DNA of 64,000 nucleotides from Gammaproteobacteria bacterium (GCA_965222155.1 CBDCTH010000012.1:2688001-2752000); one strand, 5' to 3'. Shown: positions 10,934 to 31,200, counted from the first letter of the stretch. Numbers and translations are program-made. The notes: a model not told the origin generated them from the sequence alone.

Positions 10934-10946
10934 CTGTAATGAAGTG

Positions 10947-11031: not shown

Positions 11032-11118
11032 ACGTTATATTAGTGAGCCATTGCGGTACTGGAGCTACATGTGAACTTATCAATGCGTCATTCGAGGCGT
11101 ATATGGCGAAAATATGGG

Positions 11119-11673
11119 TCAAGGAAACAAGCCCCAGGTAACCAGATAATCGGGGCTGGTTGCAGGTCTGCTTATTTCCTGTGTGATTACCTGCTTTTTC
11201 GCCGGCGTCGCGGGACATAGCTCCGTATCAATCGCTGATGCCATTTCCCTGCTCCAGTTGTTTGTGAGATTAATTATCTGTGTACTTGCATCCTGTAACA
11301 GGAGAGAGTGTTCAACTTTGTCTCCCGGCAGGTAACGATGCTCGCCGAACATCAGCAGTTTGCCACCCTGCCCCCGCGCCAGTTCTCCCAATACGTAAGC
11401 GGCCGCGCCTTTAGTGCAACCGAGTATGGTCGTATCTGCGTCCCACGGGCCGGATAGTTCGCGGAAAGTTTCTGCCGGGTCCTGTTTCAGGACATGAATG
11501 GCGGACGCCCGGGACTTCAATGCATCCTTGAATGCGATGCTTTCCGTTATGCTGTTTTCAAAGACAACCTTGACCGGCGCCTGCGGCAAAATTTTCGCAA
11601 CGACTGGGGCAGGCAAAGCCGAACCGATAATGGACAGTGCGGCAGTCTGTAATATTCTTCTTCTTGTAACCAT
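11119..11673 (-). CDS. Tat-exported hypothetical protein, accessory gene of the flavocytochrome operon
   Basis: MVTRRRILQTAALSIIG twin-arginine signal; directly follows the cytochrome c gene. Confidence 0.65.
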   Translation of the reverse strand: MVTRRRILQTAALSIIGSALPAPVVAKILPQAPVKVVFENSITESIAFKDALKSRASAIHVLKQDPAETFRELSGPWDADTTILGCTKGAAAYVLGELARGQGGKLLMFGEHRYLPGDKVEHSLLLQDASTQIINLTNNWSREMASAIDTELCPATPAKKQVITQEISRPATSPDYLVTWGLFP

Positions 11674-11680
11674 GACTGAT

Positions 11681-11998
11681 TTACCGGCCCAGGAAATCCG
11701 CCAGGGCATTCATTTCCGCTTCGCTGATCTCAGTGATGCGGAATGAGGGCATTTCATCCAGACCGCGGCGCACTATTAACCTGATGTATTCCGGGTCCAG
11801 ATCGTCCCGTTCAGTCAGCAACGATTTCTCTTTGCCCTTGTCCCAAGTCAGGCGCAGGGTGCCCGGACCGCTGTTGTCTTCACCGTGACAATGGACACAC
11901 CACTGTTGGAATACCCTCTCTCCAGTTGTAACTTCCGCCGCCTGGAGTGGATGGTGCACCATGGTCAGGGTGATCATGATGGCTGTGAGCTGTTTCAT
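11681..11998 (-). CDS. cytochrome c subunit, PchC-like
   Basis: Signal peptide; GERVFQQWCVHCH; PGT..L; VRRGLDEMPSFRITEIS; ATGA overlap with the flavoprotein 3' end. Confidence 0.88.
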   Translation of the reverse strand: MKQLTAIMITLTMVHHPLQAAEVTTGERVFQQWCVHCHGEDNSGPGTLRLTWDKGKEKSLLTERDDLDPEYIRLIVRRGLDEMPSFRITEISEAEMNALADFLGR

Positions 11999-12601
11999 TG
12001 TTTCTCGCGCAGGTATTTCGGCCAGATCCCCTGCTTGCCAGGCGCCAGTATGCCGTTCGGGTCCAGCGCGTCCTTGAGCTTGTTGTTCAGGCGCGCCAGG
12101 GAGTTGTCGTTCCAGTTGTAGGTGGCGGCTATCTGGTCCATGAAGGCAATGTGCGTTCGGTATTCGCCGTAGCCGGCCTCAGCGGCTTCCCGGACCAGGA
12201 TTTCAAATAATTGATAGGCGCGCTGTTTCTTTTCCGGGTCATTCTTATCAAATACCAGGGTATAGATATGGTGCATCTCTCGCCAGCCGACGATGAACAC
12301 GCCCATGTAATCGAAACCGTGTTCGTGCGCCCGCTGCTTCACCATGTTGAATTGTTTGATGGCATCCGCACCGGTTGTCGGGGAAACCGGGGAGAAATCA
12401 ATATGGCCACCGCCGCCCACCCAGTTTACCAGGCCGAATTCGGTCAGGGTCGGGATCCCGGCCATGGTTTTGGCGCGCTGATGCAGGACGTCGTTTTTGT
12501 TTTTTCGATCTTCGGGAAAATAAAATTTTGCAGCGGTGATTGATGCAAAAGCATCCCGGATGATCTCCCAGTGAGCGTCCATGATTTTCGGCGGGCCGTA
12601 G
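11995..12601 (-). pseudogene. 3' part of a VAO/PCMH-family flavoprotein (5'-truncated)
   Basis: YGPPKIMDAHW...GYGEYRTHIAFMDQ...KLKDALDPNGILAPGKQGIWP; homology stops at ~12601 next to REP/MITE remnants. Confidence 0.9.
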
Positions 12602-12775
12602 AGGAGGAATATTGAAATCATGTTACTCTGACCCCAAATATCCACAGCAAACAAATAGCCGATGACGACAAGCGAACTGGTAAGAAATACGGGCTAACCC
12701 ACTCCCTGGCTGTCAGGACGCTTGTCCTATACTTATACTTGACCTCTGATGTACAGTTGACTAACATCACGCATC

Positions 12776-13012
12776 ATGCGTACTACCATCAACATTGCAA
12801 CGCCGATTCTCGAGGAACTGAAGAAGATCCAGAGTAAAGAGGGCGGTTCTCTGGGTGAGCTTGTTTCCAGGTTGCTGGCCGGGGCACTTAAGACACGCCC
12901 GTCGCGCGGAATTGATCCCGAGCTCGAATGGGTCAGCAAACCTATGCGTGTGCGCGTAGACCTTGTTGACAAGGAGGCCGTTTACGCGCTGCTTGATGAA
13001 GATTCCCTTTGA
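12776..13012 (+). CDS. vapB: VapB-like antitoxin
   Basis: MRTTINI RHH-type start; overlaps the PIN toxin gene. Confidence 0.8.
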   Translation: MRTTINIATPILEELKKIQSKEGGSLGELVSRLLAGALKTRPSRGIDPELEWVSKPMRVRVDLVDKEAVYALLDEDSL

Positions 13013-13443
13013 GCTACACGATAGACGTCAATATTCTGCTCTATGCCTCAGATCGGACCTCACCGTTCCATGCGGCAGCGGCTGACTTTCTGCGTAATCG
13101 TTCGAAGGACCCGGAGATCTTATGCCTGACGTGGCCGACCATCATGAGCTATGTCCGACTGGCGACTCATCCGAGGGTGTTCGATGACCCCATGAGTCCG
13201 CAGGAGGCAATCGACAATATTGCCCACTTGATGCAAATGTCGCGGTGCCGAGTCGTGGTGGAAAATGAGGATTTTCTGACCAGTTTCCGTGAAATCGTTG
13301 CAGGGGTTACTGTACGCGGCAATCTCGTGCCTGACGCGCACCTTGCCGCTATGATGCATATCCACGACATTCGTACCATTTATACACACGACCGGGATTT
13401 TCTGAAGTTCACTTTCTTGAAGGTCATTGACCCGGTCGCTTGA
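13009..13443 (+). CDS. vapC: VapC PIN-domain toxin
   Basis: [28 protein letters not shown]. Confidence 0.9.
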
Positions 13444-13453
13444 TTACCGCCAG

Positions 13454-15145
13454 ATGAATACAGGGCTCAGCTTTGTCAACGGCACCGGCAACAAACCGCT
13501 GATCTACCAGACCATCGGCAATGCCTTGCAATCTGCTGCGGAGACGTTTCCGCAGCGGGAGGCCCTGGTTGTGCGTCACCAGGATATTCGTTGGACCTAC
13601 ACGGAGTTGCTGCGGCGCGTGGATGATCTGGCGGCCGGGTTAATTGCCCTGGGGTTTGCTCCCGGTGACCGGATCGGAATCTGGGCGCCCAACTGCGCCG
13701 AATGGGTGCTCACCCAGTTTGCCACGGCCAGGGCCGGCCTTATCCTGGTGAACATCAATCCGGCATACCGCAGTCATGAACTCGAGTTTGCTTTGAACAA
13801 AGTTTCCTGTAAGGGGCTGGTAACCGCCTCCAGGTTCAAGAGCAGTGATTACTTTGCCATGCTGGCAGAGCTGGCGCCTGAGTTGAATTCAACCGGTCCG
13901 GGACGATTGTCTTCCAGCAGGTTGCCCCACCTGAAAACAGTCATCCGGCTGGGGGAGGAAGAAACACCCGGCTGTTATAACTTCAATGCACTACCCGCAA
14001 TGGGCGGCACTGCCGAAAAACAGAAGCTGAAGGAACTGTTCTCCCTGCTGCAACCTGACGACGCCATCAATATCCAGTTCACCAGTGGCACGACCGGGTC
14101 GCCCAAGGGCGCCACTCTGACCCATTTCAATATACTCAATAACGGCTATTTTGTAGGCCAAGCCATGAAGTTCACCGAATGGGACAGGCTGTGTATCCCG
14201 GTGCCGTTTTATCACTGTTTCGGCATGGTGATGGGCAACCTCAACTGTACCATTCACGGCGCCACCATGGTCATACCGAATGACGGTTTTGACCCTGCAC
14301 TGACCCTGGCAGCGGTAAGCGAGGAAAGGTGTACTGCCTTGTACGGTGTTCCTACCATGTTTATCGCCGAACTGGACCTGCCGGACTTTCCGGATTATGA
14401 CCTCTCCAGCCTGCGTACCGGTATTATGGCCGGGTCGTCCTGCCCCATCGAAGTCATGAAACGGGTCGTCGCCGAGATGAACATGAGCGAGATCACCATC
14501 GCTTACGGTATGACGGAGACCAGCCCGGTCAGTTTCCAAAGCAGCACCGACGATCCGCTGGAACGCCGGGTATCCACCGTAGGCCGTATTCACCCCCACG
14601 TGCAGGTGAAGATCATCGACCAGGCAGGACGCACGGTACCCATAGGTGAGAAAGGAGAACTGTGTACCCGGGGCTATAACGTCATGTCAGGTTACTGGGA
14701 TGACCCGGACAAGACCGGGGAAGCCGTTGACACAGTCGGCTGGATGCATACCGGCGACCTGGCCACCCTCGATGCGGAAGGTTATTGCAATATTGTCGGG
14801 CGCGTGAAAGACATGGTGATACGCGGAGGGGAGAATATCTACCCCCGCGAAGTCGAGGAATTCCTGTATGGCCACGACAAGATACAGGACGTATCCGTAT
14901 TCGGCGTTCCGGACGATAAGTACGGTGAGCAACTCTGCGCCTGGATAAAGCTGAAGCAGGGACAGGAGGCCGGCGAGGCAGAGATCAAGGCGTTCTGCAA
15001 AGATAAGATCGCCTACAACAAGGTGCCGTATTATGTCCGATTTGTCGAGGAGTTCCCCATGACGGTCACCGGCAAGGCACAGAAGTTCATCATGCGCGAC
15101 AGGATGATCGAGGAGTTGGGCCTGACGCTCCGGGAGACTGCATAA
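13454..15145 (+). CDS. AMP-binding acyl-CoA synthetase (ACSF2-like)
   Basis: [50 protein letters not shown]. Confidence 0.93.
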
Positions 15146-15259
15146 TTGGCTTTAACCCGGTGCAACAATCCCACACTCAACAGTATTAAAATCGTATTGT
15201 CACGTTAGCGGGGACTGCTGTCTGTGCAGTGTCCAGGTGTTGTCGACGGATATAGGTTT

Positions 15260-15348
15260 GGATATTTGGGGTCAGCGTAAAAATACTCAACAACAAGCCA
15301 CTATCACTTGCCAAACTGACTGTATTTTTACGCTGACCCCAAATATCC
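15260..15348. repeat. perfect 27-bp inverted repeat (REP-like GGGGTCAG family)
   Basis: ggatatttggggtcagcgtaaaaatac / gtatttttacgctgaccccaaatatcc with a 35-nt loop; lone arm at 12623-12643. Confidence 0.8.
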
Positions 15349-15751
15349 TAATGTGTTCATCATCCAGCCATAACAGACTGCGCTTGATGCGTTCATTGCG
15401 CACATCCATGTACGCAACCCTGCGGGCGGCTGTTGCCGTGCAAATCGGCTATCCTGCCGATTTGTCTTGCTTGTCTTTTTGCTGCGCTCCATCCCCCTGC
15501 TCAACTCCATACAGAGCCTGCCCCTGCGGTTGTAAGCAGGGGGGCAGGCTCTGGAGCGCCCCCTTCGGGCAATCTTCGAGTGTCCAAATCCATTCCAGAT
15601 GGATTTGTTGCGCCAGCAGGCAGGTCGGTAATTCATAGTCCATAGGGGGTGAGTTGCGATTATGCCCGGGGCAGATTATCATTCCGTATCAACACAAGCA
15701 CCCCAGGGGGCGAACCCAGCTACCATTGAGCACTGAACCAGGAGGCAATCT

Positions 15752-18700
15752 ATGAAGATAATCCCTGACCCCGGTCCGACAGGCCCGGAACACGCACAAT
15801 CCTGTTGCTGCAGCAGCTGTTCGGCAGTGAACCTGGAACAGCGAGTATCCCAATCTCAAGGCTCTCAAGGCTTTCAAGGTTCTCAAGACTCTCAAAACGC
15901 CCCGGCCGCTGCGGAGAAGCTGCCCCAATGGGGCGTACTGGCCTCGGACTCCTATGATTGGATCGCCGACTATATCAATGTTTCGGACAGGTACTTTCCG
16001 ATTGAGCCCGGCGGCGAGATCACGGTGAACCTCACCGGTCTGACCGCTGCGGGCCAGCAACTCGCCCGGTGGGCCTTCGAGGCCTGGGAGTCGGTGGCGA
16101 ACCTGACCTTTCGGGAAGTGGAAAAGGACGCTAAAATCACCTTCGACGATGAGTCCCCGGGTGGCCGGGCGAACCTCGTTAAGGCGGGGGGCGGCGGGTT
16201 CCTCTCGGTCAAGGTAAATGTGGGGCAGACGATGCTCCGCTTGTATGGTGACGGTCTCGGCAGCGAGACGTTCAATACCTACCTCCACGAGATTGGCCAT
16301 GCGCTGGGCTTGGGCCATACCGGTTACTACGATGGCGATGCTACGTACGGGGTTGACAACCTGTATAAGGCTGACTCCTACCAGACGTCGGTCATGTCGT
16401 ACTTCGACCAAAACGGGAATACCGACATCGATGCAAGCTACGCCTATCCGGTCACGCCGATGATGGCCGACATCCTGGCGATTCAGAAGAAGTATGGCGT
16501 CCCCGAGACCAACCCCGGGGACACGGTGTACGGCTACCAGTCCAACGTCGGCGGCTACCTGGGGCAGGTCTTCGCGGCACTCACCGGGCAAGCGAGTAAG
16601 CTCGATCATCCGGTGACACTGACGCTGTTCGACAGCGGCGGGAAAGACCAGCTGGACCTGCGCACGGACGAGGCGGACCAGCGGGTGGACCTGCGTCCGG
16701 AGGGCGTCTCGGACGTGTACGGGATGAAGGGCAACTGGCTGATAGCGCGGGGCACGGTGATTGAGAACCTGGTGGCCGGTCAGGGCGATGACCAGGTGAT
16801 TGCGAATGCGGCGGTGAACGAGTTGGACGGTGGCCCGGGCAGTGACACGGTATCCTATGTGGGCTCGGATGCCGGGGTGCGGGTGGACCTGGAGGCGGGG
16901 ACAGGTGCCGGCGGTCATGCTCAGGGCGACACGCTCAGAAACTTTGAGCACGTGGTGGGCTCGGCACACGCTGATGAGTTGCGCGGTGACGGCAGCGCCA
17001 ACCGGTTGTCGGGTGGCGCCGGGGACGATGCGTTGTACGGCAACGCGGGCGCGGACACGCTGGACGGGGGCGCGGGTAACGACCGGCTGTACGGTCACGA
17101 GGGCGCGGACCGGTTGCGCGGAGGGCGCGGCGCGGACACCCTGGACGGAGGCGCCGGGGCGGACACGCTGGAGGGCGGCAGTGGGGAGAACAGTGCGGCC
17201 TACCGGGGCTCGGACATCGGGGTGGAGGTGAACCTGGACAGCGGGGTGGTGTCAGGCGGTCATGCTGCGGGCGACACGCTCATCAGCATCAAGCACCTTA
17301 TCGGCTCGGCCTATGCCGACACGCTGACGGGGGATGCGGACGCCAACCAGCTGGGCGGCGGCGGCGGCAACGACCGGCTGGCCGGCGGCGGCGGCAACGA
17401 TGTGTTGGCTGGCGGGGCCGGGGATGACATGCTGGCCGGCGGGGCCGGCAACGATGTGCTGGCGGGTGGGGCCGGCGCCGATACGCTGGGCGGCGGGGCC
17501 GGAGCGGACACGGCATCCTACGCTGACTCCGATGCGAGAGTGCAGGTGAACTTGCGTAGCGGGGCGGTGTCGGGGGGTGATGCCGAGGGCGACACGCTCA
17601 CCGGCATCGAGCACCTCATCGGTTCGGCACATGACGACAAGCTGACCGGGGATACCGGCGCCAACCAGCTGGCGGGCGGGGCCGGGGACGATGAGTTGTA
17701 CGGCAAAGCGGGCGCTGACACGCTGGACGGGGGCGAGGGTAACGACCGGCTGTACGGTCACGCGGGTGACGACGTGCTGGTGGGCGGGGCTGGCGCCGAC
17801 ACGCTGGGCGGCGGGGCCGGGGCCGACACGGCGTCTTACAGCGGCTCTGCGGTGGGGGTGCAGATTGACCTGGAAGCGGGCACGTTCCAGGGAGGCGATG
17901 CAGTGGGCGACCGCCTCAACTCGATTGAGCGGCTTGAAGGCTCGCGCCATGCCGACCACCTGGCCGGCAGTGCGGCGGGGGATTGGTTGGCCGGCGCGGA
18001 CGGGGACGACCGGTTGGTGGGGCGGTTGGGCCATGACCGGCTGGCCGGCGATGCGGGCGATGACCAGTTGGAGGGTGGCGACGGTGATGACCGGCTGGTC
18101 GGTGGCGACGGCGATGACCAGTTGGAGGGTGGCGACGGTGATGACCGGCTGGCTGGCGATGTGGGCGATGACGTGCTGGAGGGCGGCGCCGGCGCGGACC
18201 GGCTCAAGGGCGGCGCCGGGTATGATACTGCCTCGTATGCGGGCTCCCCGGTCGGGGTACGGATTGACCTGGCGGCACAGACATTCCAGGGGGGCGATGC
18301 CGCCGGGGATGCGCTCACTGATATTGAGCGGATTGTCGGCTCGGGGCAGGGCGATGTGCTGCGGGGGAGTGACGAGACAGACCACCTGGTCGGGGCCGGT
18401 GGGGATGATGAGCTGGCCGGGCGGGCGGGGGACGATACGCTGGCGGGCGGTGCCGGCGCGGACGTACTGGACGGCGGCGCCGGGGGCGACACCGTCTCGT
18501 ATGCCGACTCGGGTGCTGGGGTGCAGGTGAACCTGGACACCGGCGCGCGCTCAGGGGGCGATGCGGCGGGCGACAGGCTCAGCAGCATCGAGAGTATCAT
18601 CGGCTCGGCGCATAACGACGGTTTGACGGGCGATGGCAAGGCCAATCGGCTGGCAGGCGGCACGGGGGACGACACGCTGCGCGGCGGCGCCGGGGACGAT

Positions 18701-21700
18701 GTGCTGGAAGGGGGCGCCGGCGCGGACGTGCTGGACGGTGAAGGCGGTACCGATACGCTGTCCTATGCCGGCTCTGCGTCAGGGGTAGTGGTCATTCTGG
18801 GTAACGGTACGGTGTCGGGGGGTGATGCTCAGGGTGACACGTTTGCCAACGTTGAGAATGTGGTCGGCTCTGCGCGGACTGATTCGCTGTACGGGGACGA
18901 CAGCGCCAACCGGCTGGACGGGGGCGCCGGTGATGACAGGATGGCGGGTTGGTATGGTGCTGACGAGCTGTATGGTGAGGAGGGCGCTGACCGCCTGTAC
19001 GGCAACGCGGGTAACGACGTACTGGACGGCGGGGTTGGTAATGACTTCCTGAGCGGCGGCCCCGGGGCGGACACCCTGAGCGGGGGCGGGGGCGCCGACA
19101 GCCTGGATGGGGATACCGGGGCGGACACCTTCCGATACAGTGCCGCGGCGGACTCGACCGTAACCAACCCGGACCGCATCCTGGACTTCTCAGGGAACGG
19201 CGGGGACGGCGATAAGCTGGACCTGTCCGGCCTGGGCAACGACCTGACGTTTATTGGCACAACGGCCTTCTCCAACAGTGCGGGCGAGGTGCGCTATGTG
19301 CAGCGCGGGACGGACACGGGCAACACCGGCGATGATTACACCGACGTACTGGTTGATGTGGACGGGGACGGCACGGCGAATGTCAAAGTGACTCTGGTCG
19401 GATTACACAGCCTGACACTGGATGACCTGCCGGGCGTACAGGCGCCGCCGGCCCCGGTGGTCAAGCCCCGGGACCTCGACGGCACGCCGGGGGATGATAC
19501 GTTGGTGGGCGATGACCAGGCCAACGTCCTGCGCGGCCTGGCCGGCAACGACACCCTTGAAGGCAAGGCCGGGGCCGACACCCTGGACGGGGGCAGCGGG
19601 GCGGACACCGCGGCCTACACCGACTCGGACGCCGCGGTGCAGGTGGACTTGGACGTCGGGACGGCCACGGGCGGTCATGCCCAGGGCGACACCCTGACAG
19701 GTATTGAGCACCTGCGCGGCTCGGCGCACGCGGATGTGCTACGCGGGGACAACAGTGCCAACCGCCTGTGGGGCGGCGCCGGGGCGGACAAGCTGGTGGG
19801 GCTGTCAGGTAATGACCGCTTGTATGGCGAGGCGGGCGCTGACCGCCTGTATGGCAGCTGGGGAGACGACGTACTGGCCGGTGGCGCCGGCGCAGACGTG
19901 CTGGACGGTGAAGGCGGTACCGACACGCTGTCCTATGCCGGCTCTGCGTCAGGGGTAACGGTCAACCTGGCTACCGGTGCGGTATCGGGCGGGGATGCCC
20001 AGGGTGACACGATTGCCAGTATTGAGAACGTGGTCGGCTCCACGCAGGCCGATGTGCTGGTCGGGGACGGCAGTGCCAACCGGCTGGACGGCGGTGCCGG
20101 GGATGATACCTTACGCGGGGCCGGCGGCGCCGACACCCTGACAGGCGGGGCCGGGGCGGACACCGCGTCCTACACCGACTCCAATGCGGCGGTGCAGGTG
20201 GACCTGGGGAGCGGCACGGCGAGCGGCGGCCATGCCCAGGGTGACACGCTCACCGGCATCGAGCACCTCAGCGGCTCGGCCCATAACGATACACTGCGCG
20301 GCGCGGCCGGCGCCAACACACTGCGCGGGCACGGCGGTGACGACGGGCTGGCGGGCCAGGCCGGCGCGGACCGCCTGGAGGGGGGCGCCGGGGATGACAC
20401 GCTGGACGGCGGCGCGGGATCAGACACCCTGGCCGGGGGGAGCGGGGATGACACCGCGTCCTACACCGACTCCACTGCGGCGGTGCAGGTGGACCTGGAC
20501 ACGGGCACTGCCACAGGCGGCCATGCCCAGGGTGACACGCTCACCGGCATCGAGCACCTCAGCGGCTCGGCCCATAACGATACACTGCGCGGCGCGCCCG
20601 GCGCCAACACGCTGCGCGGGCACGGCGGTGACGACGGGCTGGCGGGCCAGGCCGGCGCGGACCGCCTGGAGGGGGGTCCCGGCGCGGACACGCTGGACGG
20701 CGGCGCCGGGTCAGACACCCTGGACGGGGGCAGCGGGGCGGACACCTTCCACTACAAGGCGGCGGCGGACTCGACCGTAACCAACCCGGACCGCATCCTG
20801 GACTTCTCAGGGAGTAGCGGCGACGGCGACCAACTGGACTTATCCGACTTGGGCAACGACCTGACGTTTATTGGCACAACGGCCTTCTCCAACAGTGCGG
20901 GCGAGGTGCGCTATGTGCAGCGCGGGACGGACACGGGCAACACCGGCGATGATTACACCGACGTACTGGTGGACCTGAACGGCAACGGTACAGCGAATGT
21001 CAAAGTGACCCTGGTCGGATTACACAGCCTGACACTGGATGACCTGCCGGGCGTACAGGCGCCACCGGCCCCGGTGGTCAAGCCCCGGGACCTCGACGGC
21101 ACGCCGGGGGATGATACGTTGGTGGGCGATGCCCGGGACAACGTCCTGCGCGGCCTGGCCGGGGACGACGTCCTGGACGGCAGGGCCGGGGCCGACACCC
21201 TGGACGGGGGGAGCGGGGCGGACACGGCGGCCTACACCGACTCGGACGCCGCGGTGCAGGTGGACTTGGACGTCGGGACGGCCACGGGCGGTCATGCCCA
21301 GGGCGACACCCTGACGAGTATTGAGAACCTGCGCGGCTCGGCGCACGCGGATGTGCTACGCGGGGACAACAGTGCCAACCGCCTGTGGGGCGGCGCCGGG
21401 GCGGACAAGCTGGTGGGGCTGTCAGGTAATGACCGCTTGTATGGCGAGGCGGGCGCTGACCGCCTGTACGGCAGCTGGGGGGACGACGTACTGGCCGGCG
21501 GCGCCGGCGCGGACCACCTGGACGGTGAAGGCGGTACCGACACGCTGTCCTATGCCGGCTCGGCGTCAGGGGTGGCGGTCAACCTGGCCAGCGGTACGGT
21601 ATCGGGGGGGGATGCCCAGGGTGACACGATTGCCAGCGTTGAGAACGTGCTCGGCTCGGCGCAGGACGATGTGCTGGTCGGGAACGGCAGTGCCAACCGG

Positions 21701-24280
21701 CTGGACGGCGGTGCCGGGGATGATACCTTACGCGGGGGCGGCGGCGCCGACACCCTGGGCGGGGGGAGCGGCGCGGACACCTTCCACTACAGTGCCGCGG
21801 CGGACTCGACCGTAACCAACCCGGACCGCATCCTGGACTTCTCAGGGAGTGACGGGGACGGCGACCGGCTGGACTTGTCCGGCCTGGGCAACGACCTGAC
21901 GTTTATCGGGACAACGGCCTTCTCCAACAGTGCGGGCGAGGTGCGCTCTGTGCAGCGCGGCGCGGGCACAAGCAGTGACAGCAGTGATGATTACACCGAC
22001 GTACTGGTGGACCTGAACGGCAACGGCACGGCGAACGTCAAAGTGACTCTGGTCGGATTACACAGCCTGACACTGGATGACCTGCCGGGCGTCCAGGCGC
22101 CGCCGGCCCCGGTGGTCACGCCCCGGGACCTCGACGGCACACCGGGGGATGATACGTTGATGGGCGATGCCCAGGACAACACACTGCGCGGCCTGGCCGG
22201 CAACGACGTCCTTGAAGGCAAGGCCGGGGCCGACACCCTGGACGGGGGCAGCGGGGCGGACACCGCGTCGTATGCCGACTCGGACGCCGCGGTGCAGGTG
22301 GACTTGGACGCCGGGACGGCCAGTGGCGGTCATGCCCAGGGCGACACCCTGACGGGTATTGAGCACCTGCGCGGCTCGGCGCACGCGGATGTGCTGCGCG
22401 GGGACAACAGCGCCAACCGCCTGTGGGGCGGCGCCGGGGCGGACAAGCTGGTGGGGCTGTCAGGTAATGACCGCTTGTATGGCGAGGCGGGCGCTGACCG
22501 CCTGTTCGGCAGCTGGGGGAACGACGTACTGGCCGGTGGCGCCGGCGCGGACCACCTGGACGGTGAAGGCGGTACCGACACGCTGTCCTATGCCGGCTCG
22601 GCGTCAGGGGTGGCGGTCAACCTGGCTGCCGGTACGGTATCGGGGGGGGATGCCCAGGGTGACACGATTGCCAGCGTTGAGAACGTGCTCGGCTCGGCGC
22701 AGGACGATGTGCTGGTCGGGAACGGCAGTGCCAACCGGCTGGACGGCGGTGCCGGGGATGATACCTTACGCGGGGGCGGCGGCGCCGACACCCTGACAGG
22801 CGGGGCCGGGGCGGACACCTTTCAATACAAGGCGGCGGCGGACTCGACCGTGGCCAACCCGGACCGCATCCTGGACTTCTCAGGCAACGGCGGGGACGGT
22901 GACCACCTGGACTTATCCGGCCTGGGCAACAACCTGACGTTTATCGGCACAACGGCCTTCTCCAACAGTGCGGGCGAGGTACGCTACGTGCAGCGCGGCG
23001 CGGCCACAAGCAGCGACACCAGTGATGATTACACCGACGTACTGGTGGACCTGAACGGCAACGGCACAGCGAACGTCAAGCTCACCCTGGTCGGATTACA
23101 CAGCCTGACACTGGATGACCTGCGGGGGGTGCGCGCCGCGCCCCCTGAGCCGGCCGACCCCCCTGCGCCCCCGCCTGAGCCGAGTGGGCCGGCGCCTATT
23201 GTCGGGACAGCGGGTAACGATGCCTTGCACGGGGATGCCCAGGCCAACGTGCTGCGCGGCCTGGCCGGCCAGGACGTACTGGCCGGTCAGGGCGGCGCCG
23301 ACACCCTGGACGGGGGCAGCGGGGAGGACACCGCGACCTACACCGACTCGGACGCCGGGGTGCGGGTGGACCTGGGCCGCGGCACGGCGAGCGGCGGCCA
23401 TGCCGACGGTGACACGTTCATCAGCATCGAGCATGTCATCGGCTCGGCCTATGGCGATACGCTGCGCGGCGACGGCAACGCCAACACGCTGCGCGGGCGG
23501 GCCGGCGACGACACCCTGGCCGGCAACGGCGGGCGCGACGTGCTGGACGGCGGCGCCGGCAATGACACGCTGGCCGGCGGCGCCGGGGCGGACCGCCTCT
23601 ACGGCAGTGGCGGCGCCGACGTGCTGGATGGCGGGACCCATCACGACCTGGTGTCGTATGCGCACTCACCCGCCGGGGTGCGGGTGGACGTGCAGCTCGG
23701 CACCGGCGCCGGCGGGGATGCCGAGGGCGACACGCTCACCAGCATCGAGAGCGTCATCGGCTCGGCGCACGATGACGAGCTCCGGGGCGACTACGGCAAC
23801 AACCTGCTGTCCGGCCTGGCCGGTAACGACCGGTTGGTGGGGCAGGGCGGGCGCGACATGCTGTATGGCGGGGGCGGTGATGACACGCTGGACGGCGGCG
23901 CCGGGGACGACAGGCTGAAGGGCGATGGCGGCAGCGACCGGCTCAGCGGCGGGTCGGGGGCGGACATTTTCTGGTTTATCAGCGCGCCCGACTCGACCCC
24001 GGCGACCCCGGACCGGGTGCTGGATTTCTCAGGCGAGGGGGATGACGGCGACCGGCTGGACCTGTCCGACCTGGGCAACGACCTGGCCTTCATCGGCACG
24101 GCGGCCTTTACCGACACACCGGGGCAGGTGCGCTATAGCCAGCGCGGCGCCGGCACGGGCGGCAACACCGACGATGACTACACCGACGTGTTGGCCGATC
24201 TGAACGGCGACGGCGCGGCCGACTTCATGCTGATCCTGGTTGGGCTGCACAGCCTGACCGACAACGACTTCATCGTGTGA
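15752..24280 (+). CDS. giant serralysin-like (M10) zinc metalloprotease with RTX repeats, 2842 aa (RTX1)
   Basis: [11 protein letters not shown] zinc motif, Met-turn SVMSY, dozens of GGxGxDxLx nonapeptides, serralysin-type C-terminus ending DNDFIV. Confidence 0.93.
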   Translation: MKIIPDPGPTGPEHAQSCCCSSCSAVNLEQRVSQSQGSQGFQGSQDSQNAPAAAEKLPQWGVLASDSYDWIADYINVSDRYFPIEPGGEITVNLTGLTAAGQQLARWAFEAWESVANLTFREVEKDAKITFDDESPGGRANLVKAGGGGFLSVKVNVGQTMLRLYGDGLGSETFNTYLHEIGHALGLGHTGYYDGDATYGVDNLYKADSYQTSVMSYFDQNGNTDIDASYAYPVTPMMADILAIQKKYGVPETNPGDTVYGYQSNVGGYLGQVFAALTGQASKLDHPVTLTLFDSGGKDQLDLRTDEADQRVDLRPEGVSDVYGMKGNWLIARGTVIENLVAGQGDDQVIANAAVNELDGGPGSDTVSYVGSDAGVRVDLEAGTGAGGHAQGDTLRNFEHVVGSAHADELRGDGSANRLSGGAGDDALYGNAGADTLDGGAGNDRLYGHEGADRLRGGRGADTLDGGAGADTLEGGSGENSAAYRGSDIGVEVNLDSGVVSGGHAAGDTLISIKHLIGSAYADTLTGDADANQLGGGGGNDRLAGGGGNDVLAGGAGDDMLAGGAGNDVLAGGAGADTLGGGAGADTASYADSDARVQVNLRSGAVSGGDAEGDTLTGIEHLIGSAHDDKLTGDTGANQLAGGAGDDELYGKAGADTLDGGEGNDRLYGHAGDDVLVGGAGADTLGGGAGADTASYSGSAVGVQIDLEAGTFQGGDAVGDRLNSIERLEGSRHADHLAGSAAGDWLAGADGDDRLVGRLGHDRLAGDAGDDQLEGGDGDDRLVGGDGDDQLEGGDGDDRLAGDVGDDVLEGGAGADRLKGGAGYDTASYAGSPVGVRIDLAAQTFQGGDAAGDALTDIERIVGSGQGDVLRGSDETDHLVGAGGDDELAGRAGDDTLAGGAGADVLDGGAGGDTVSYADSGAGVQVNLDTGARSGGDAAGDRLSSIESIIGSAHNDGLTGDGKANRLAGGTGDDTLRGGAGDDVLEGGAGADVLDGEGGTDTLSYAGSASGVVVILGNGTVSGGDAQGDTFANVENVVGSARTDSLYGDDSANRLDGGAGDDRMAGWYGADELYGEEGADRLYGNAGNDVLDGGVGNDFLSGGPGADTLSGGGGADSLDGDTGADTFRYSAAADSTVTNPDRILDFSGNGGDGDKLDLSGLGNDLTFIGTTAFSNSAGEVRYVQRGTDTGNTGDDYTDVLVDVDGDGTANVKVTLVGLHSLTLDDLPGVQAPPAPVVKPRDLDGTPGDDTLVGDDQANVLRGLAGNDTLEGKAGADTLDGGSGADTAAYTDSDAAVQVDLDVGTATGGHAQGDTLTGIEHLRGSAHADVLRGDNSANRLWGGAGADKLVGLSGNDRLYGEAGADRLYGSWGDDVLAGGAGADVLDGEGGTDTLSYAGSASGVTVNLATGAVSGGDAQGDTIASIENVVGSTQADVLVGDGSANRLDGGAGDDTLRGAGGADTLTGGAGADTASYTDSNAAVQVDLGSGTASGGHAQGDTLTGIEHLSGSAHNDTLRGAAGANTLRGHGGDDGLAGQAGADRLEGGAGDDTLDGGAGSDTLAGGSGDDTASYTDSTAAVQVDLDTGTATGGHAQGDTLTGIEHLSGSAHNDTLRGAPGANTLRGHGGDDGLAGQAGADRLEGGPGADTLDGGAGSDTLDGGSGADTFHYKAAADSTVTNPDRILDFSGSSGDGDQLDLSDLGNDLTFIGTTAFSNSAGEVRYVQRGTDTGNTGDDYTDVLVDLNGNGTANVKVTLVGLHSLTLDDLPGVQAPPAPVVKPRDLDGTPGDDTLVGDARDNVLRGLAGDDVLDGRAGADTLDGGSGADTAAYTDSDAAVQVDLDVGTATGGHAQGDTLTSIENLRGSAHADVLRGDNSANRLWGGAGADKLVGLSGNDRLYGEAGADRLYGSWGDDVLAGGAGADHLDGEGGTDTLSYAGSASGVAVNLASGTVSGGDAQGDTIASVENVLGSAQDDVLVGNGSANRLDGGAGDDTLRGGGGADTLGGGSGADTFHYSAAADSTVTNPDRILDFSGSDGDGDRLDLSGLGNDLTFIGTTAFSNSAGEVRSVQRGAGTSSDSSDDYTDVLVDLNGNGTANVKVTLVGLHSLTLDDLPGVQAPPAPVVTPRDLDGTPGDDTLMGDAQDNTLRGLAGNDVLEGKAGADTLDGGSGADTASYADSDAAVQVDLDAGTASGGHAQGDTLTGIEHLRGSAHADVLRGDNSANRLWGGAGADKLVGLSGNDRLYGEAGADRLFGSWGNDVLAGGAGADHLDGEGGTDTLSYAGSASGVAVNLAAGTVSGGDAQGDTIASVENVLGSAQDDVLVGNGSANRLDGGAGDDTLRGGGGADTLTGGAGADTFQYKAAADSTVANPDRILDFSGNGGDGDHLDLSGLGNNLTFIGTTAFSNSAGEVRYVQRGAATSSDTSDDYTDVLVDLNGNGTANVKLTLVGLHSLTLDDLRGVRAAPPEPADPPAPPPEPSGPAPIVGTAGNDALHGDAQANVLRGLAGQDVLAGQGGADTLDGGSGEDTATYTDSDAGVRVDLGRGTASGGHADGDTFISIEHVIGSAYGDTLRGDGNANTLRGRAGDDTLAGNGGRDVLDGGAGNDTLAGGAGADRLYGSGGADVLDGGTHHDLVSYAHSPAGVRVDVQLGTGAGGDAEGDTLTSIESVIGSAHDDELRGDYGNNLLSGLAGNDRLVGQGGRDMLYGGGGDDTLDGGAGDDRLKGDGGSDRLSGGSGADIFWFISAPDSTPATPDRVLDFSGEGDDGDRLDLSDLGNDLAFIGTAAFTDTPGQVRYSQRGAGTGGNTDDDYTDVLADLNGDGAADFMLILVGLHSLTDNDFIV

Positions 24281-24374
24281 GCCGGGTCCGGCAGCCGTCA
24301 ACGTGACCCGCGCTGCGGTCGTGGTCCGCTTCAGCCCATTGGAGCTGTGAAAAAACGACCGGGGCAATCCGGTT

Positions 24375-24503
24375 CATTTCCTCAGCAGCGGTGCCGAGAC
24401 TCACCCTGATTTCAAGGGCCTTGGGGCCATGACGTTTTTCCCCGGCCCATGATGAAGATGCACACAACAAGATGATTAGTAGCAGTAATCTATGAATATT
24501 CAT
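24375..24503 (-). pseudogene. 5' fragment of a secreted protein (possibly cupredoxin-like), cut at the RTX1 downstream boundary
   Basis: Signal peptide MNIHRLLLLIILLCASSSWA then EIRVSLGTAAEEM, running into sequence shared with the RTX2 tail. Confidence 0.5.
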
Positions 24504-24585
24504 CAGCTTTCCTCCACGCTCAACGGTCATGATTACAGGTAAAAGATAATCGTGATCTCGTTTACGTTCAACAGTTGGCGGTTTT

Positions 24586-25918
24586 CACTAGTGTCCCAAC
24601 GTTTGAGGCCTGGGTAGTTGTAACTTATTGATATAGCTTAATAAACAAATCATTTTTGCCTGTCATCGACTTGAATTCGGCGGCGCCTGCCTGTCCTGCG
24701 CTCACTCCTATTCATTACCAGGGAGTTTTGCCCCATGTATACCGGCAACGTCATCGTCTCTCAAGTCATGGCCCATCTGCCCAGGCATACCTTCCGACGC
24801 TGTGTGCAGCGTTATCGCGGCCACCACAAAGTCAAACGCGTCACCTGCCTCGACCAATTCCTATGTCTGGCCTTCGCTCAACTCACCTACCGGGAGAGCC
24901 GGCGGGATAGCGAAGCCGGCCTGCGCGCACAGCGCCACACGTTGTACCACAGGGGCTTGCGCGGCACCGTCTCACGCAACACCTTGGCCCATGCCAACCC
25001 GACCCGCGACGGGCGCATCTACGCCGACGTCGCCCACGCCTTAATCCACAGCGCCCGACAACTGTCTCTCGACGAGGACGTCGGCCTCGCACTCACACAC
25101 ACCGTCTATGCCCTTGATGCCACCCCCATCGACCTGTGCTTGTCCGTCTTTCCCTGGGCCCGCGTCCGTACCACCAAAGGCGCCGTCAAAGTGCATACGC
25201 TACTCGACCTGCGGGGCAGTATTCCCACGTTTATCCACCTCTCTGACGGCAAACTGCACGCTGTCAAGGGCCTCGACCTGCTACTGCCCGACGCCGGCGC
25301 CCGCTACATCATGGAGCGCGGCCACCTGGACTGCCGCCGCCGCTACACCTTGCAGCAGGCCGCCGCCTGCTTCATCGTCCGGGCCAAGGCCCACTGGCGT
25401 TAGCGCCGCCGCTATGCCCACCCCGTCGATAAACACACCGGCCTCCAGTGCCACCAGACCGTCGTCCTCACCGGCTTCTACGCGGCCAAACACTACCCGG
25501 ATAAACTCCGCAGAGTCAAAGTGACCGACCCGGCAACTGGCCGACAACTGGTCTTCCTCACTAACCACTTCACCTTGCCTGCACACACGATTACCCAACT
25601 GTATCGCTGCCGTTGGCAGGTTGAACTGTTCTTCAAATGGATGAAGCAGCCTCTACGTATCAACGCCTTCTACGGCACCGCCGAGCACGCGGTCAAAACC
25701 CAAATCTGGACCGCCGTGACGGTCTATGTCCTGGTCGCCATTATCAAAAAACGCCTCAATATCCCCCTTAGTCTCTACACACTATTACAGATTTTGAGCG
25801 TGTCCGTCTTTGAGAAAATGCCGCTGGATCATATACTTACCAAAACTGATTACAATATGAAACAACCCGATACACCTAACCAGTTGATTTTATTCGATTA
25901 ATCGTTGGGACACTAATG
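24586..25918 (+). mobile_element. IS4-family element, degenerate transposase (24735-25901, internal TAG at 25401)
   Basis: TIR CACTAGTGTCCCAACG / CGTTGGGACACTAATG; 9-bp TSD GGCGGTTTT (24577-24585, 25919-25927); YALDAT.IDLCL and LYRCRWQVELFFKW motifs. Confidence 0.93.
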
Positions 25919-26005
25919 GGCGGTTTTATAGTTTCATTATCTGATAATAAACCGCAAGTCCCAATACTGCAAAATCAACAGATTATATCGGTCCGACCCA
26001 GAAGC

Positions 26006-27448
26006 TCAGGCGATGTGTGTGCGGTATTCGCCGTAGCCGGCTGCCGCTGCCTCACGGATCAGGATATCGAACAACTGATGGGCGCGCTGTTTCTTTTCCG
26101 GGTCATTCTTATCAAATACCAGGGTATAGATATGGTGCACCTCTCGCCAGCCGACGATGAACACGCCCATGTAATCGAAACCGTGTTCATGCGCTCGCTG
26201 CTTCACCATGTTGAATTGTTTGATGGCATCCGCACCGGTTGTCGGGGAAACCGGCGAGAAGTCAATATGACCACCGCCACCCACCCAGTTCACCAGGCCG
26301 AATTTGGTCAGGGTCGGGATTCCGGCCATGGTTTTGGCACGCTGATGCAGGACGTCGTTTTTGTTTTTTCGATCTTCGGGAAAATAAAATTTTGCGCCGG
26401 GGATTGATGCAAAAGCATCCCGGATGATTTCCCAGTGGGCATCCATGATTTTCGGTGGGCCGTAGCGCGCGGCATAAAAGTTCCATGCGCCTATGTCCTG
26501 GTCGGTCATGATCTTTTTACGGATGCTGTCCGGGACGGGGCCGTCATAATATTCCGTCCTGCTGGTATTCAGTGATGCGACCAGGTGCAGGTCGCGTATG
26601 GTCGCGGCATTCTGTATCACCAGGTTGACTTTGAGCGGTCGGATGACCTCCACTGCCTGTTCAATATCCTCATCCCGCTGAAAAGTAATCAGGTAAGGAC
26701 GATAGCCGGGGGGTTCCGGCATCAACCAGACCCCCAGCTTGGTGACTATGCCGTAGTTGGACTGTGTGAATATGCCGTCATGATACGGGCCAAAGCCGTA
26801 TTTGAACAGTTGCCAGGTGTTATTACCCGGCATGGAACCCATGCCCGTGCGGACTACGTCGCCGTCGGCAAGCACTACCTCCATGCCGCATTGGCGCATG
26901 AAGTGGTCGCCGTAAGGCGTGTAACCGGCGCCCCGTTCCAGGGTCGTTCCGAGCACGCTGCCCCAACCGGGATCCGGTACGTCCAGCCAAAGCTTGAGGC
27001 CGCGCGCCTGTATGTAATTGTACAGGTCAAAAAAACTGACCCCGGGTTCAACCAGTGCGTAGCCGAACTGCTCATTGACCTCAAGCACCCGGTTCATGCG
27101 TTTGAGATCAAGCACGACGCTCCCCGGCAGACGCGGCGCGGCGCCGCCGTAGGCCAGGTTTTTCCCGCAGGAAACCGGCCACAGAGGAATGTTGAAGTCA
27201 TCAGCGATCTTCAGGACAGCCTGAATCTCCTGCACACCGTCCGGCGCAATGGAGGCTGAAGGGCGAAAATGGGCTTCATCAACTATCGCGTAGGGGTCGC
27301 GATAACTAATCAGTTCAGCAGTTTCATCGGCGAACACCCAGTTATCGCCTACCACTTCACGAAAAGCAGCCAGGGCCTGGGCAAATTGTTTTCCGGTGAC
27401 GTCCGGAGGGAGTAATTTTTTCACAGTTCCCCTTCCATTTTCTTCCAA
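26006..27448 (-). pseudogene. VAO/PCMH-family (4-alkylphenol oxidising) flavoprotein lacking the last ~49 aa
   Basis: PLWPVSCGKNLAYGGAAP, LVEPGVSFFDLY, CGMEVVLADG, FTQSNYGIVTK; stops right after GYGEYRTHIA. Confidence 0.9.
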
Positions 27449-27497
27449 TCATATCGCAATTTATAACATCATGCCGATCAGATTTCCCCCGGCATCT

Positions 27498-27673
27498 CAG
27501 CAGTTCCCGCTAACTCCCGGGATCGAGAGCATCCTGCCCTCGTGGAGGGCGAGACGCCCTCGCTCCCAGGGGAAAATGCCCGTGACTCCTGGGGGACAGA
27601 TTTAAATCTGTCCCCGCTGTCTTCGAATCCGGCAAGAATCACTGTATTGACTTCGAGTTAGCGGGAACACCTG
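27498..27673. mobile_element. MITE family A (176 bp) with internal REP-like hairpins
   Basis: TIR CAGcaGTTCCCGCTAACTC / GAGTTAGCGGGAACacCTG; perfect 9-bp TSD CCGGCATCT (27489-27497, 27674-27682). Confidence 0.85.
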
Positions 27674-27859
27674 CCGGCATCTTAGCCCGTATATCTCAGT
27701 TCGCTTGTTGTCATCGGATAGTTGTTTGCTGTCAATACGTTATGATAATCTGCTCACTATATTGTCATAACAGGACGCGCTTGATACGCCCTCGCTTGTC
27801 TTTTTGCCGCCAGCCTTTGGTAATAAACGGTCAGCCGAGAAATTTATCCGCTGCCGAGG

Positions 27860-28050
27860 TGAGCGCATCCAGTTGTTCCAGGGGCGGTGCGTGACCGCCA
27901 ACTGCTGCGCCTGCCTGCCAAGCAGGCGTTGACCGGTGTTGCGATGCAAGTCCCGTCTGACCGTGATGCACGCCCGACCCGTGTCCCGGACAATGGCCAT
28001 GTTGGAATAACCCTGTTTCTTCATGTGATATGGTCTCGTTCAGCTTCAAC
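27860..28050 (-). pseudogene. IS30-family transposase N-terminal HTH remnant
   Basis: ER.HI / MKKQGYSNMAIVRDTGRA..TVRRDLHRNTGQR...QAQQLA resembles the IS30 HTH start. Confidence 0.6.
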
Positions 28051-28058
28051 CAGTGGTG

Positions 28059-28212
28059 CAACAGTTCCCGCTAACTCCCGGGCTCGAGGGCATCCTGCCC
28101 TCGTGGAGGGCGAGACGCCCTCCCTCCCAAGGAAACATGCTCCTTTATGGTCAGAGTATGCCCGAATCCGGCAATAATCACTGTATTGACCTCGATTTAG
28201 CGGGAGCACCTG
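28059..28212. mobile_element. MITE family A, second copy (154 bp)
   Basis: Same ends and internal sequence as 27498-27673; degenerate TSD ccagtggtg/tcagcgatg. Confidence 0.8.
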
Positions 28213-28293
28213 TCAGCGATGTGTATTGCTTGCTCATGGTAATTACTTCCTGCTATACTATTTATGCTCACTGAACCCGTAGGAAGGTAATCC

Positions 28294-31200
28294 ATGAAGA
28301 TGACTCCTGACCAACGAGTATTCCAATCTCAAGACTCTCAAAACGCCCCGGCCGTTGCGGAGAAGCTGCTCCAATGGGGCGTGCTCGCCTCGAACACCTA
28401 TAACGAGATCGCCGACTACATCAATGCTACGGACACGTACTTTTCGATTGAGCCCGGCGGTGAGATCACGGTGGACATCACCGATCTGACCGACGCGGGT
28501 CAGCAACTCGCCCGCTGGGCCCTGGCGGCCTGGGAGTCGGTGGCGAACCTGACCTTCCGGGAAGTGGAAGACGGCGCCAACATCAAATTTGACGATGAAG
28601 GGCAGAGAGGCTGGACGACTTACGCCTTTTCAAGCGACGGGCTCACCTCAGCCCTGGTGAACGTGCCGAAGACTTGGATAGACAAGTATGGTGACGGGTT
28701 CGGCAGCTGGGCGTTCATGACCTATCTCCATGAGATTGGCCATGCGCTGGGTTTGAACCATGCCTTTAACTACCAGGGCTCTGCTACGTATGATCTGTAT
28801 GAGGTTGACTCCTACCAGACGTCGATCATGTCGTATCTCGATGAACGCAAGGTCGTGCCGATCACGCCAATGATGGCGGACATCCTGGCGATTCAGAAGA
28901 AGTACGGCGCCCCCGAGACCAACCCCGGGGACACCGTGTATGGCTACCAGTCCAACGTCGACGGCTACCTGGGGCAGGTCTTCGCGGCAATCGCCGAGCA
29001 AGACGGTGAGCTTGTGCCGGTGACACTGACGTTGTTCGACAGCGGCGGGGAGGACCGGCTGGACCTGCGCACGGACAAGGCGGACCAGCGGGTGGACTTG
29101 CGTCCGGAAGGCATCTCGGACGTGTACGGACTGAAGAGCAACTGGCGGATAGCGCGGGACACGGTGATTGAGAATCTGATTGCGGGTCAGGGCGATGATC
29201 AGGTGATTGCGAATGCGGTGGCGAACGAGTTGGACGGTGGGCCGGGCAGTGACACGGTGTTGTATGTGGGCTCGGATGCTGGGGTGCAGGTGGACTTGCG
29301 CGCCGGGACTGCCACGGGCGGTCATGCGCAGGGCGACACCCTGAAGAATATCGAGAATCTGCGCGGCTCGGCGCACGGCGATGCGTTACGCGGCGATGCC
29401 GGCGACAACACGCTGCGCGGGCTGGCCGGCGACGACACCCTGGCCGGCAACGGCGGGCGCGACGTGCTGGACGGCGGCGCCGGCAATGACACGCTGGCCG
29501 GCGGCGGCGGGGCGGACCTCCTCTACGGCAGTGGCGGCGCCGACGTGCTGGATGGCGGGACCCATTACGACCTGGTGTCGTATGCGCACTCCCCCGCCGG
29601 AGTGCGGGTGGACGTGCAGCTCGGCACCGGCGCCGGCGGGGATGCCGAGGGCGACACACTCACCAACATCGAGAGCGTCACCGGCTCGGCGCACGACGAC
29701 GAGCTCCGAGGCGACTACGGCACCAACCAGCTGAACGGCCTGGCCGGTAACGACCGGTTGGTAGGGGGCGCCGGGCGCGACGTGCTCTACGGCGGCGCCG
29801 GCAGCGACCGGCTCAGCGGCGGGTCGGGGGCGGACATTTTCTGGTTTATCAGCGCGGCCGACTCGACCCCGGCGACCCCGGACCGGGTGCTGGATTTCTC
29901 AGGCGAGGGGGGTGACGGCGACCGGCTGGACCTGTCCGGCCTGGGCAACGACCTGACGTTTATTGGGACAACGGCCTTTTCCAACAGTGCGGGCGAGGTG
30001 CGCTCTGTGCAGCGCGGCGCGGCCACAAGCAGCGACACCAGTGATGATTACACCGACGTGCTGGTGGACCTGGACGGTAACGGTACAGCGAACGTCAAAG
30101 TGACCCTGGTCGGGCTGCATAGCCTGACACTGGCGGACCTGCCGGGCGTCCAGGCGCCGCCGGCCCCGGTGGTCAAGCCCCGGGACCTCGACGGCACGGC
30201 CGGCGATGATACGTTGGTGGGCGATGCCCAGGACAACACACTGCGCGGCCTGGACGGCAATGACGTACTGGACGGCAGAGCCGGGGCCGACACCCTGGAC
30301 GGGGGCAGCGGGGCGGACACCGCGTCCTACACCGACTCGGACGCCGCGGTGCAGGTGGACTTGGACGCCGGGACGGCCACGGGCGGCCATGCCCAGGGTG
30401 ACACGCTCACCGGCATCGAGCACCTCAGCGGCTCGGCCCATAACGATACACTGCGCGGCGCGGCCGGCGCCAACACGCTGCGCGGGCACGGCGGTGACGA
30501 CGGGCTGGCGGGCCAGGCCGGCGCGGACCGCCTGGAGGGGGGTACGGGCGCGGACACGCTGGACGGCGGCGCCGGGTCAGACACCCTGGCCGGGGGCGCC
30601 GGGGCGGACACCTTCCACTACAAGGCCGCGGCGGACTCGACCGTGGCCAATCCGGACCGGATTGTGGACTTCTCAGGTAGTGACGGGGACGGTGACCAAC
30701 TGGACTTGTCCGGCCTGGGCAACGACCTGACGTTTATCGGGACAACGGCCTTCTCCAACAGTGCGGGCGAGGTGCGCTACGTGCAGCGCGGCGCGGACAC
30801 AAGCAGCAACACCGGCGATGATTACACCGACGTACTGGTTGATGTGGACGGCAACGGCACGGCGAACGTCAAAGTGACTCTGGTCGGATTACACAGCCTG
30901 ACACTGGATGACCTGCCGGGCGTACAGGCGCCGCCGGCCCCGGTGGTCAAGCCCCGGGACATCGACGGCACACCGGGCGATGATACGTTGGTGGGCGATG
31001 ACCAGGCCAACGTCCTGCGCGGCCTGGCCGGCAACGACGTCCTGGACGGCAGGGCCGGGGCGGACACCCTGGACGGGGGCAGCGGGGCGGACACGGCGGC
31101 CTACACCGACTCGGACGCCGCGGTGCAGGTGGACTTGCGCGCCGGGACTGCCAGTGGCGGTCATGCACAAGGCGACACCCTGACGAGCATTGAGCACCTG

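Follow-up and report, generated by a model that had tools for sequence, protein, structure and literature searches.

Genes lying in two parts around a multi-kilobase insert, the developmental excision of which restores the gene, are represented by sigK with its skin element, by nifD with the nifD element and by spsM with SPbeta. Such elements carry a site-specific recombinase gene of their own and short attachment cores; skin is described as encoding the recombinase SpoIVCA, and SPbeta as using 16-bp cores (PMC4191935). Complementary truncated copies around an insert are also the product of Campbell-type insertion via an internal gene fragment, and strings of displaced truncated genes have been attributed to homology-facilitated illegitimate recombination (HFIR) in the accounts given by PMC3240628 and PMC5361080. 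Here we analyzed a 64,000-nucleotide stretch of a Gammaproteobacteria bacterium genome (GCA_965222155.1, CBDCTH010000012.1:2688001-2752000; hereafter the window), in which a flavoprotein gene of the p-cresol methylhydroxylase (PCMH)/vanillyl-alcohol oxidase (VAO) type is present as two complementary fragments that share a direct repeat. Our reading is that the locus would be a scar, in which two once-complete copies of the gene stood in series and were then reciprocally truncated; the anatomy of the locus, the ancestral gene order and the pattern of divergence are observed, whereas how the copies came together, and in which sequence of steps, is inferred from them.

The direct repeat detected by blastn comprises 458 bp at positions 12144-12601 (copy A) and 26008-26465 (copy B), with an identity of 92.8% at an offset of 13,864. 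Pairwise alignment of the two copies gave 33 differences and no gaps, and the similarity broke off sharply at each end. Third codon positions accounted for 26 of the 33 differences, 8 of 152 residues were changed, and the longest identical runs were 59, 59 and 56 bp. Fragment A (11995..12601, minus strand) occupies the ancestral position and retains the C-terminal ~201 codons, without the FAD-binding domain and with FAD-oxidase_C as its only Pfam match. The open reading frame (ORF) that contains it (11995-12654, minus strand) is flavoprotein-like from (L)YGPPK on, aligned to the final ~200 residues of the orthologs up to the stop, and has the C-terminus conserved in relatives. Fragment B (26006..27424, minus strand) consists of codons 1-472 from the conserved GTG start, carrying FAD_binding_4 (2.7e-28) and a partial FAD-oxidase_C; it is without the last 49 codons, its ORF (26006-27448, minus strand) ends in GYGEYRTHIA followed by the stop, and no cytochrome c gene lies downstream. 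An in-frame 2-codon deletion in the YYDGDGP motif, which is conserved in three aligned orthologs, was also seen in fragment B at around 26500-26600.

In the alignment, the two fragments jointly spanned the 521-residue ortholog length without a frame break. Owing to their collinearity and common frame, the reading frame would stay open wherever in the repeat a crossover fell; the predicted product has 521 codons when counted from the conserved GTG and 529 with the TTG start of the initial annotation. This annotation had proposed a direct repeat of 457 bp with ~90-93% identity and mostly synonymous changes, complementary halves of one flavoprotein gene, coupling of fragment A to a cytochrome c gene, and a single crossover that would yield an intact gene and a released circle; the repeat, the ORFs, the domains, the ortholog alignment and the uninterrupted frame are all in good agreement with that description.

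The flavoprotein showed the FAD_binding_4 and FAD-oxidase_C domains (Pfam) of the PCMH/VAO type, and the closest solved structures were 8s7p_A (2e-212), eugenol oxidase 5fxd_A (6.8e-165) and PCMH 1dii_A (1.9e-133), the matches also including vanillyl-alcohol oxidases. The first of these is titled by its depositors as 'Oxidoreductase' only, and a literature search on the PDB code 8S7P returned unrelated chemistry papers only and no enzyme name. An adjoining downstream cytochrome c gene is expected for a flavocytochrome dehydrogenase, and an intact cytochrome c subunit gene (11681..11998, minus strand; Pfam Cytochrome_CBB3, 1.5e-15), encoding a CVHCH haem motif and a signal-like N-terminus, lies directly downstream of fragment A and adjoins the flavoprotein gene in relatives. 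The last gene of the ancestral flavocytochrome cluster encodes a conserved 196-aa protein (11119..11709, minus strand) with a twin-arginine-like signal (N-terminus RRRILQTAAL) and without a Pfam or NCBIfam match; homologous DNA lies beside the cytochrome c gene in relatives, with a tblastn match at that place in G007. The gene therefore resembles the p-cresol methylhydroxylase and eugenol/vanillyl alcohol oxidase group of the VAO family in its two domains, its full-length similarity and its downstream cytochrome c gene. Unlike the members of that group, to which it is assigned by sequence, it is in two fragments, and neither fragment can be a working enzyme. A full-length paralog of the flavoprotein, 56% identical, is encoded elsewhere in the same genome.

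The ancestral arrangement was deduced from an ortholog search over 41 genomes (G000 included), in which 8 genomes of the genus each contained a single close ortholog, with 89-94% protein identity. The genomic context was compared in six of these 8 (G016, G022, G020, G007, G008 and G003) and in the metagenome contig L030, and all seven showed the order gatA, gatB, acyl-CoA synthetase gene (acs), flavoprotein, cytochrome c, with a single intact flavoprotein gene; the uninterrupted locus that the initial annotation suggested seeking in related genomes was thereby found in every relative with context. The gap between acs and gatB was ~20-110 bp in the six relatives with both coordinates at hand (G016, G020, G008, G022, G007 and L030), and in G003 their adjacency rests on order searches. 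The gap between the flavoprotein gene and acs was 54-217 bp, with the exception of G020, where an ISAs1-like element lies between the two genes, indicating that this intergenic spot has been hit independently. An ISAs1-like element is likewise present in the window at 52875-54140, 84% identical to the G020 insert (joined L021+L022 stretch, 15361-16615). A metagenome scan gave 13 loci, of which L030 (92% protein identity, ancestral order) was the one close match, no other exceeding 64%, and the genome and metagenome searches together yielded no relative nearer than 88-89% in the repeat.

As acs adjoins the flavoprotein gene in 7/7 relatives, it is an ancestral neighbor of this gene and not the cargo for which the initial annotation had taken it, and fragment A is, as judged from the gene order, the resident copy. 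In the window, acs (13454..15145, plus strand; AMP-binding, 3.7e-98; NF009233, 892 bits versus a cutoff of 832) is intact and was the sole tblastn match in its own genome at E<=1e-5. Between acs and gatB (37340..38782, minus strand; GatB_N, 1e-119) 22 kb has been inserted (15146-37339), comprising RTX1, a small ORF, an IS4-family element, fragment B, miniature inverted-repeat transposable elements (MITEs) and RTX2, with gatB at its far edge. Neither the N-terminal domain of RTX1 nor vapC gave a match in the fetched stretches of the seven relatives.

With respect to divergence, the identity of the repeat copies was 88-89% (at most 89.1%) with the G020 and G011 orthologs and 81-84% with the others, compared with 92.8% between the copies themselves, and A and B are, by this measure, each other's closest relatives. 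The Nei-Gojobori method gave a synonymous divergence (dS) of 0.30, a non-synonymous divergence (dN) of 0.023 and a dN/dS of 0.08 between them. When the changes were polarized with the 8 orthologs as outgroups, 8 synonymous and 6 non-synonymous changes were assigned to the A lineage and 7 and 3 to the B lineage, while 8 and 1 were ambiguous; the expectation under neutral decay is ~3.5 non-synonymous changes per synonymous change. Because dN/dS is far under the neutral value, both copies were functional for most of the time since their split and the truncations are late; given the purifying selection on both lineages, B was not born truncated. Both fragments also bear a few replacements at positions invariant in the 8 orthologs, as expected after the loss of constraint.

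Both truncation junctions are illegitimate. At junction A (12601/12602), the repeat gives way to 21 bp of unassigned sequence, 22 bp that match an arm of the hairpin element at 15257-15351 and the 54-bp end of an element; this 54-bp piece is the last part of a longer dispersed element, of which ~30 copies in the genome keep the longer left part. Spacer x (12602..12775), which contains junction A and truncated MITE pieces, gave 32 genome hits, and junction A has the appearance of a deletion that ended within repeat debris. The vapBC pair that follows (12776..13443, plus strand; vapB-like ORF 12776-13012, vapC 13009-13443) ends 10 bp before acs, and the ancestral intergenic region between the flavoprotein gene and acs is thus gone. 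At junction B (26005/26006), codon 472 is joined to unique sequence. The IS4-family element (24584..25918, plus strand; DUF4372 and DDE_Tnp_1) lies ~87 bp from junction B and has kept its own target duplication of 7-9 bp, GGCGGTT(TT), which indicates a later simple insertion and not the maker of this junction; on these two grounds the element was ruled out as the cause of the truncation.

The reality of this arrangement was assessed in four public sequencing runs over 10500-28400, three as contig sets and one as raw Hi-C reads. A contig of run X2 spans 24293-26110, matching it throughout but for an 11-bp gap in the insertion sequence (IS), and carries B-specific variants, so that junction B is real DNA. 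In run X3, the depth was 129 on the A side, 93 on vapBC-acs and 30 (29.6) on fragment B, and in X2 the order was reversed (12.7, 24 and 35, respectively); in neither were both flanks deeper than the interval between them, as simple excision predicts. The dominant contig of the IS4 element in X3 runs on into sequence off the stretch. A second acs allele, ~90.5% alike over window positions 14686-15129 and at a depth of 3, was also present in X3, and a sister lineage at roughly the A/B level of divergence thus appears to co-occur there. The uneven depths suggest co-occurring genotypes with other arrangements, for instance one without fragment B, which could be either the recipient type or the product of a deletion between RTX1 and RTX2.

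Both fragments are followed by an RTX gene in the same orientation, fragment A by RTX1 (15752..24280, plus strand), which encodes a metalloprotease-like protein of 2842 aa with HemolysinCabind in 41 stretches and Peptidase_M10_C, and fragment B by its paralog RTX2 (28294..37040, plus strand). RTX1 and RTX2 share 81% identity across 923 bp of 5' DNA, 91% in the final 300 aa and 91% in a 102-bp downstream piece, and the dS of their N-terminal 400 codons was 0.36, similar to that of the flavoprotein repeat. The homologous blocks are collinear, with offsets of 13,864 for the flavoprotein, 12,446-12,474 for the RTX 5' region and 12,760 for the RTX downstream region. Given the collinearity of the two homologies and their similar dS, the entire flavoprotein-RTX unit occurs twice.

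The reading frame of RTX2 is divided into 28294-35028 and 34971-37040, and the overlap of these two parts at 34971-35028 marks a frameshift or an assembly error. Six close RTX paralogs were found in the genome, at window positions 15752-24280 and 28294-37040 and at C12:2758406, 2304076-2305329 (minus strand), 1529923 and 3105268, with 73-80% N-terminal identity to RTX1, while across 22 further genomes of the genus the identity peaked at 57%; judged from these matches, the RTX expansion is lineage-specific, and the family is expanding and mosaic. Conserved DNA lies upstream (RTX1 and the 1.53-Mb copy) or downstream of several RTX copies, including pieces of a small convergent ORF.

The route that we prefer, with a probability of roughly 45%, is that an allele carrying flavoprotein-RTX2-gatB was added from a sister strain by one homologous and one illegitimate join. 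According to this proposal, the diverged allele would have been placed beside the resident one, the homologous join lying on the RTX/gatB side and the illegitimate join at the other end, as in HFIR. Copy A, as the resident, would have lost its first ~320 codons and the intergenic region before acs by a deletion whose other end fell in the MITE debris beside the inserted vapBC, whereas copy B, in the 22-kb block that parts acs from gatB, would have lost its last 49 codons at an illegitimate junction; the resident copy may have been truncated either before or after the addition. This route was favored because it requires the fewest events, given that B stayed functional until late, and the A/B divergence fits a donor from a sister strain. 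It would also place the locus close to the described orphan Rhs C-terminal regions and immunity arrays of type VI secretion systems, in which a diverged second version of a locus lies beside the resident with tandem truncated remnants and one illegitimate junction. Unlike the remnants in those strings, the remnants here are halves of a metabolic enzyme, and not toxin or immunity modules.

Several observations weigh against this allele addition. The genome and metagenome searches gave no donor allele, that is, no intact B-type gene directly before RTX2, and a homologous anchor on the right side could not be located. Junction B is separated from the homologous stretch downstream of RTX1 by ~290 bp of other sequence, the IS excluded. 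None of the contig pieces listed for the public runs contained junction A; the contigs end at 12246 or 12531 and resume at 12646. In addition, the N-terminus of RTX1 is nearer three other paralogs (dS 0.18-0.29) than RTX2 (0.36), so that the history of the RTX genes must be more complex than one event. RTX1 and RTX2 were thus rejected as a simple sister pair for the N-terminal domain, and the 91% identity of their C-terminal 300 aa, although the N-termini are not sister, indicates that the genes are mosaic. Finally, HFIR is given as orders of magnitude rarer than ordinary recombination in PMC5361080.

The second route that fits, somewhat less probable than the first, is an old in-genome tandem duplication of a flavoprotein-acs-RTX unit, following the entry of an RTX gene between acs and gatB. 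In this scenario, both flavoprotein copies would have remained complete over a long period, until separate deletions took away the 5' portion of copy 1 and, from copy 2, the 3' end together with acs. The collinear blocks, the single copy in relatives, the sister relationship of A and B and the similar dS (0.30 versus 0.36) are what a segmental duplication with reciprocal degeneration would leave, and dispersed repeats are abundant in the genome; the N-terminal domains of RTX1 and RTX2, however, are not sister. Moreover, an initially identical repeat of 12-14 kb would have had to escape recombinational collapse until a dS of 0.3 was reached, at least three later deletions are needed, and the low dN/dS demands a complete copy 2, so that junction B could not be the duplication junction.

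Campbell-type integration is improbable. A circle with the internal 458-bp fragment, vapBC, acs, RTX1 and IS4 that entered an intact gene by a single crossover would match the geometry exactly, with the 5' end missing on the left and the 3' end on the right. Any pair of a 5'-truncated and a 3'-truncated copy yields the same geometry, which is thus non-discriminating. The caveat in the initial annotation that two decayed copies would fit as well holds good. The dN/dS of 0.08 points to two long-functional genes and not to fragments produced by one integration when the copies diverged. The circle would further have had to carry acs, an ancestral neighbor, and the resident acs would have had to be replaced independently by RTX2. 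No replication, transfer or integration gene was found among the ORFs scanned in the interval, and the insert, with its own acs and one of two RTX paralogs, is no foreign replicon. In contrast to a Campbell-type insertion, the repeats here diverged as functional genes.

An assembly artefact, in which haplotypes of two co-occurring strains were stitched in series, has a slim chance of accounting for the locus. The bin contamination is 7.28% and the segment depths differ, in opposite directions in the two runs; on the other hand, junction B recurs in the X2 contig, from a run of a different study, both junctions join unique sequence, unlike the usual sites of mis-joining, and the window lies within a contig of >3.5 Mb.

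The only way out of the present arrangement would be RecA-dependent recombination between the 458-bp repeats, which could physically take place. Such a collapse would rebuild the 521-codon hybrid gene and remove vapBC together with the only acs, and the presence of both within the interval would be expected to select against it; that VapBC stabilizes the interval is a reasonable inference. It is improbable that a slow RecA-dependent toggle operates in the population, in which rare crossovers would rebuild the hybrid gene, vapBC would kill most cells that lose the interval, and both genotypes would coexist. The contig graph of X3 is compatible with an intact hybrid gene, in that one 56-bp identical run holds both the end of the A-side contig and the start of the B-side contig, with depths of 129 versus 93 + 30. 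No joint from ~12.3 kb to ~26.2 kb was found among the 15 of 64 joints listed; contigs break at identical stretches of at least 31 bp within the repeat (the 56-59 bp runs), and the Hi-C depth is 5 or less on unique stretches.

As for elements of the skin and nifD kind, the initial annotation had seen no recombinase, and among the ORFs scanned in 12602-26005, which did not include every small ORF, the only DNA-rearranging match was indeed the broken IS4-family transposase. The locus shares with skin, the nifD element and SPbeta a gene in two parts around a multi-kilobase insert. In place of their short cores, it has a 458-bp overlap of diverged coding sequence without an att core, and, unlike those inserts, its 'insert' holds a housekeeping-type ancestral neighbor, with gatB 22 kb beyond acs and fragment B inside that block; an excisable gene-interrupting element, as initially proposed, was therefore not borne out. 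The proposed reversible switch, in which regulated excision would restore phenol oxidation and drop an RTX1 cargo retained by VapBC, is the least probable reading, since for all that a crossover would give an open frame beside an intact cytochrome c gene, that vapBC lies within the interval and that toxin-antitoxin loci are cited as limiting large genome reductions, the only acs would be lost on excision, the repeats differ by 7%, no recombinase was seen among the scanned ORFs, both fragments carry replacements at invariant positions, and a lost circle cannot return, making the step irreversible.

The structure is thus an ordinary multi-step rearrangement scar in a repeat-rich genome, where MITEs and IS copies abound and RTX genes are expanding. 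The case gives reason for caution, in that complementary halves around a multi-kilobase insert can mimic a programmed element when synteny and the synonymous pattern say otherwise. It also provides a clean example of a conserved catabolic gene that was lost while both of its halves persisted, and of how a toxin-antitoxin pair and an essential-looking neighbor gene may protect a structure of this kind from collapsing. Should polymorphism at the locus be found among strains that occur together, it could serve as a recombination marker for this uncultured lineage.

Among the remaining features, VapC matched PIN (Pfam, 6.6e-11) and TIGR00028 (118 bits versus a cutoff of 73.6), while the vapB-like ORF of 78 aa, which overlaps vapC by 4 bp, had no family match in the profile search; in their arrangement and their VapC matches, the two genes correspond to a predicted type II toxin-antitoxin system, which is single-copy in the genome. 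A small ORF (24270..24497, minus strand) with a hydrophobic signal-like N-terminus is convergent with RTX1 and had no family match; tblastn detected partial copies of it at C12:2725033-2725158, downstream of RTX2, and at 2764845-2764991 and 3297617-3297763. The IS4-family element is degenerate, with an in-frame TAG at 25401 and an 11-bp tandem duplication at 25534-25544, and both of its pieces scored below the cutoff of profile NF033592. The genome contains another copy at C12:1402552-1403871, with 98.8% identity. The 11-bp duplication is absent from this copy and from the X2 and X3 contigs, and is either private to the assembly or an error.

The spacers of the locus are filled by at least four MITE-like families, represented by tens to hundreds of copies across the genome, 85-98% identical. 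Spacer y (15146..15751; 213 genome hits) consists of dispersed short repeats followed by ~100 bp in common with the region upstream of another RTX paralog, 15652-15751 matching C12:1529823-1529922 at 89%. Spacer w (27449..28293; 553 genome hits) begins with ~49 bp upstream of the start of fragment B, unmatched elsewhere among the matches listed, and continues with two 177-bp MITE copies and an inverted copy of the spacer-x element (repeat families D14, D15 and I1). The dispersed repeats were located at 27498-27673, 28059-28212, 15260-15349, 15483-15570 and 12644-12697 / 27682-27814 / 57081-57216. Beyond the flavocytochrome cluster, an NYN-domain gene (window 10255-10933, minus strand) falls into two ORFs that overlap (10490-10933 and 10255-10536) and is probably a frameshifted pseudogene.

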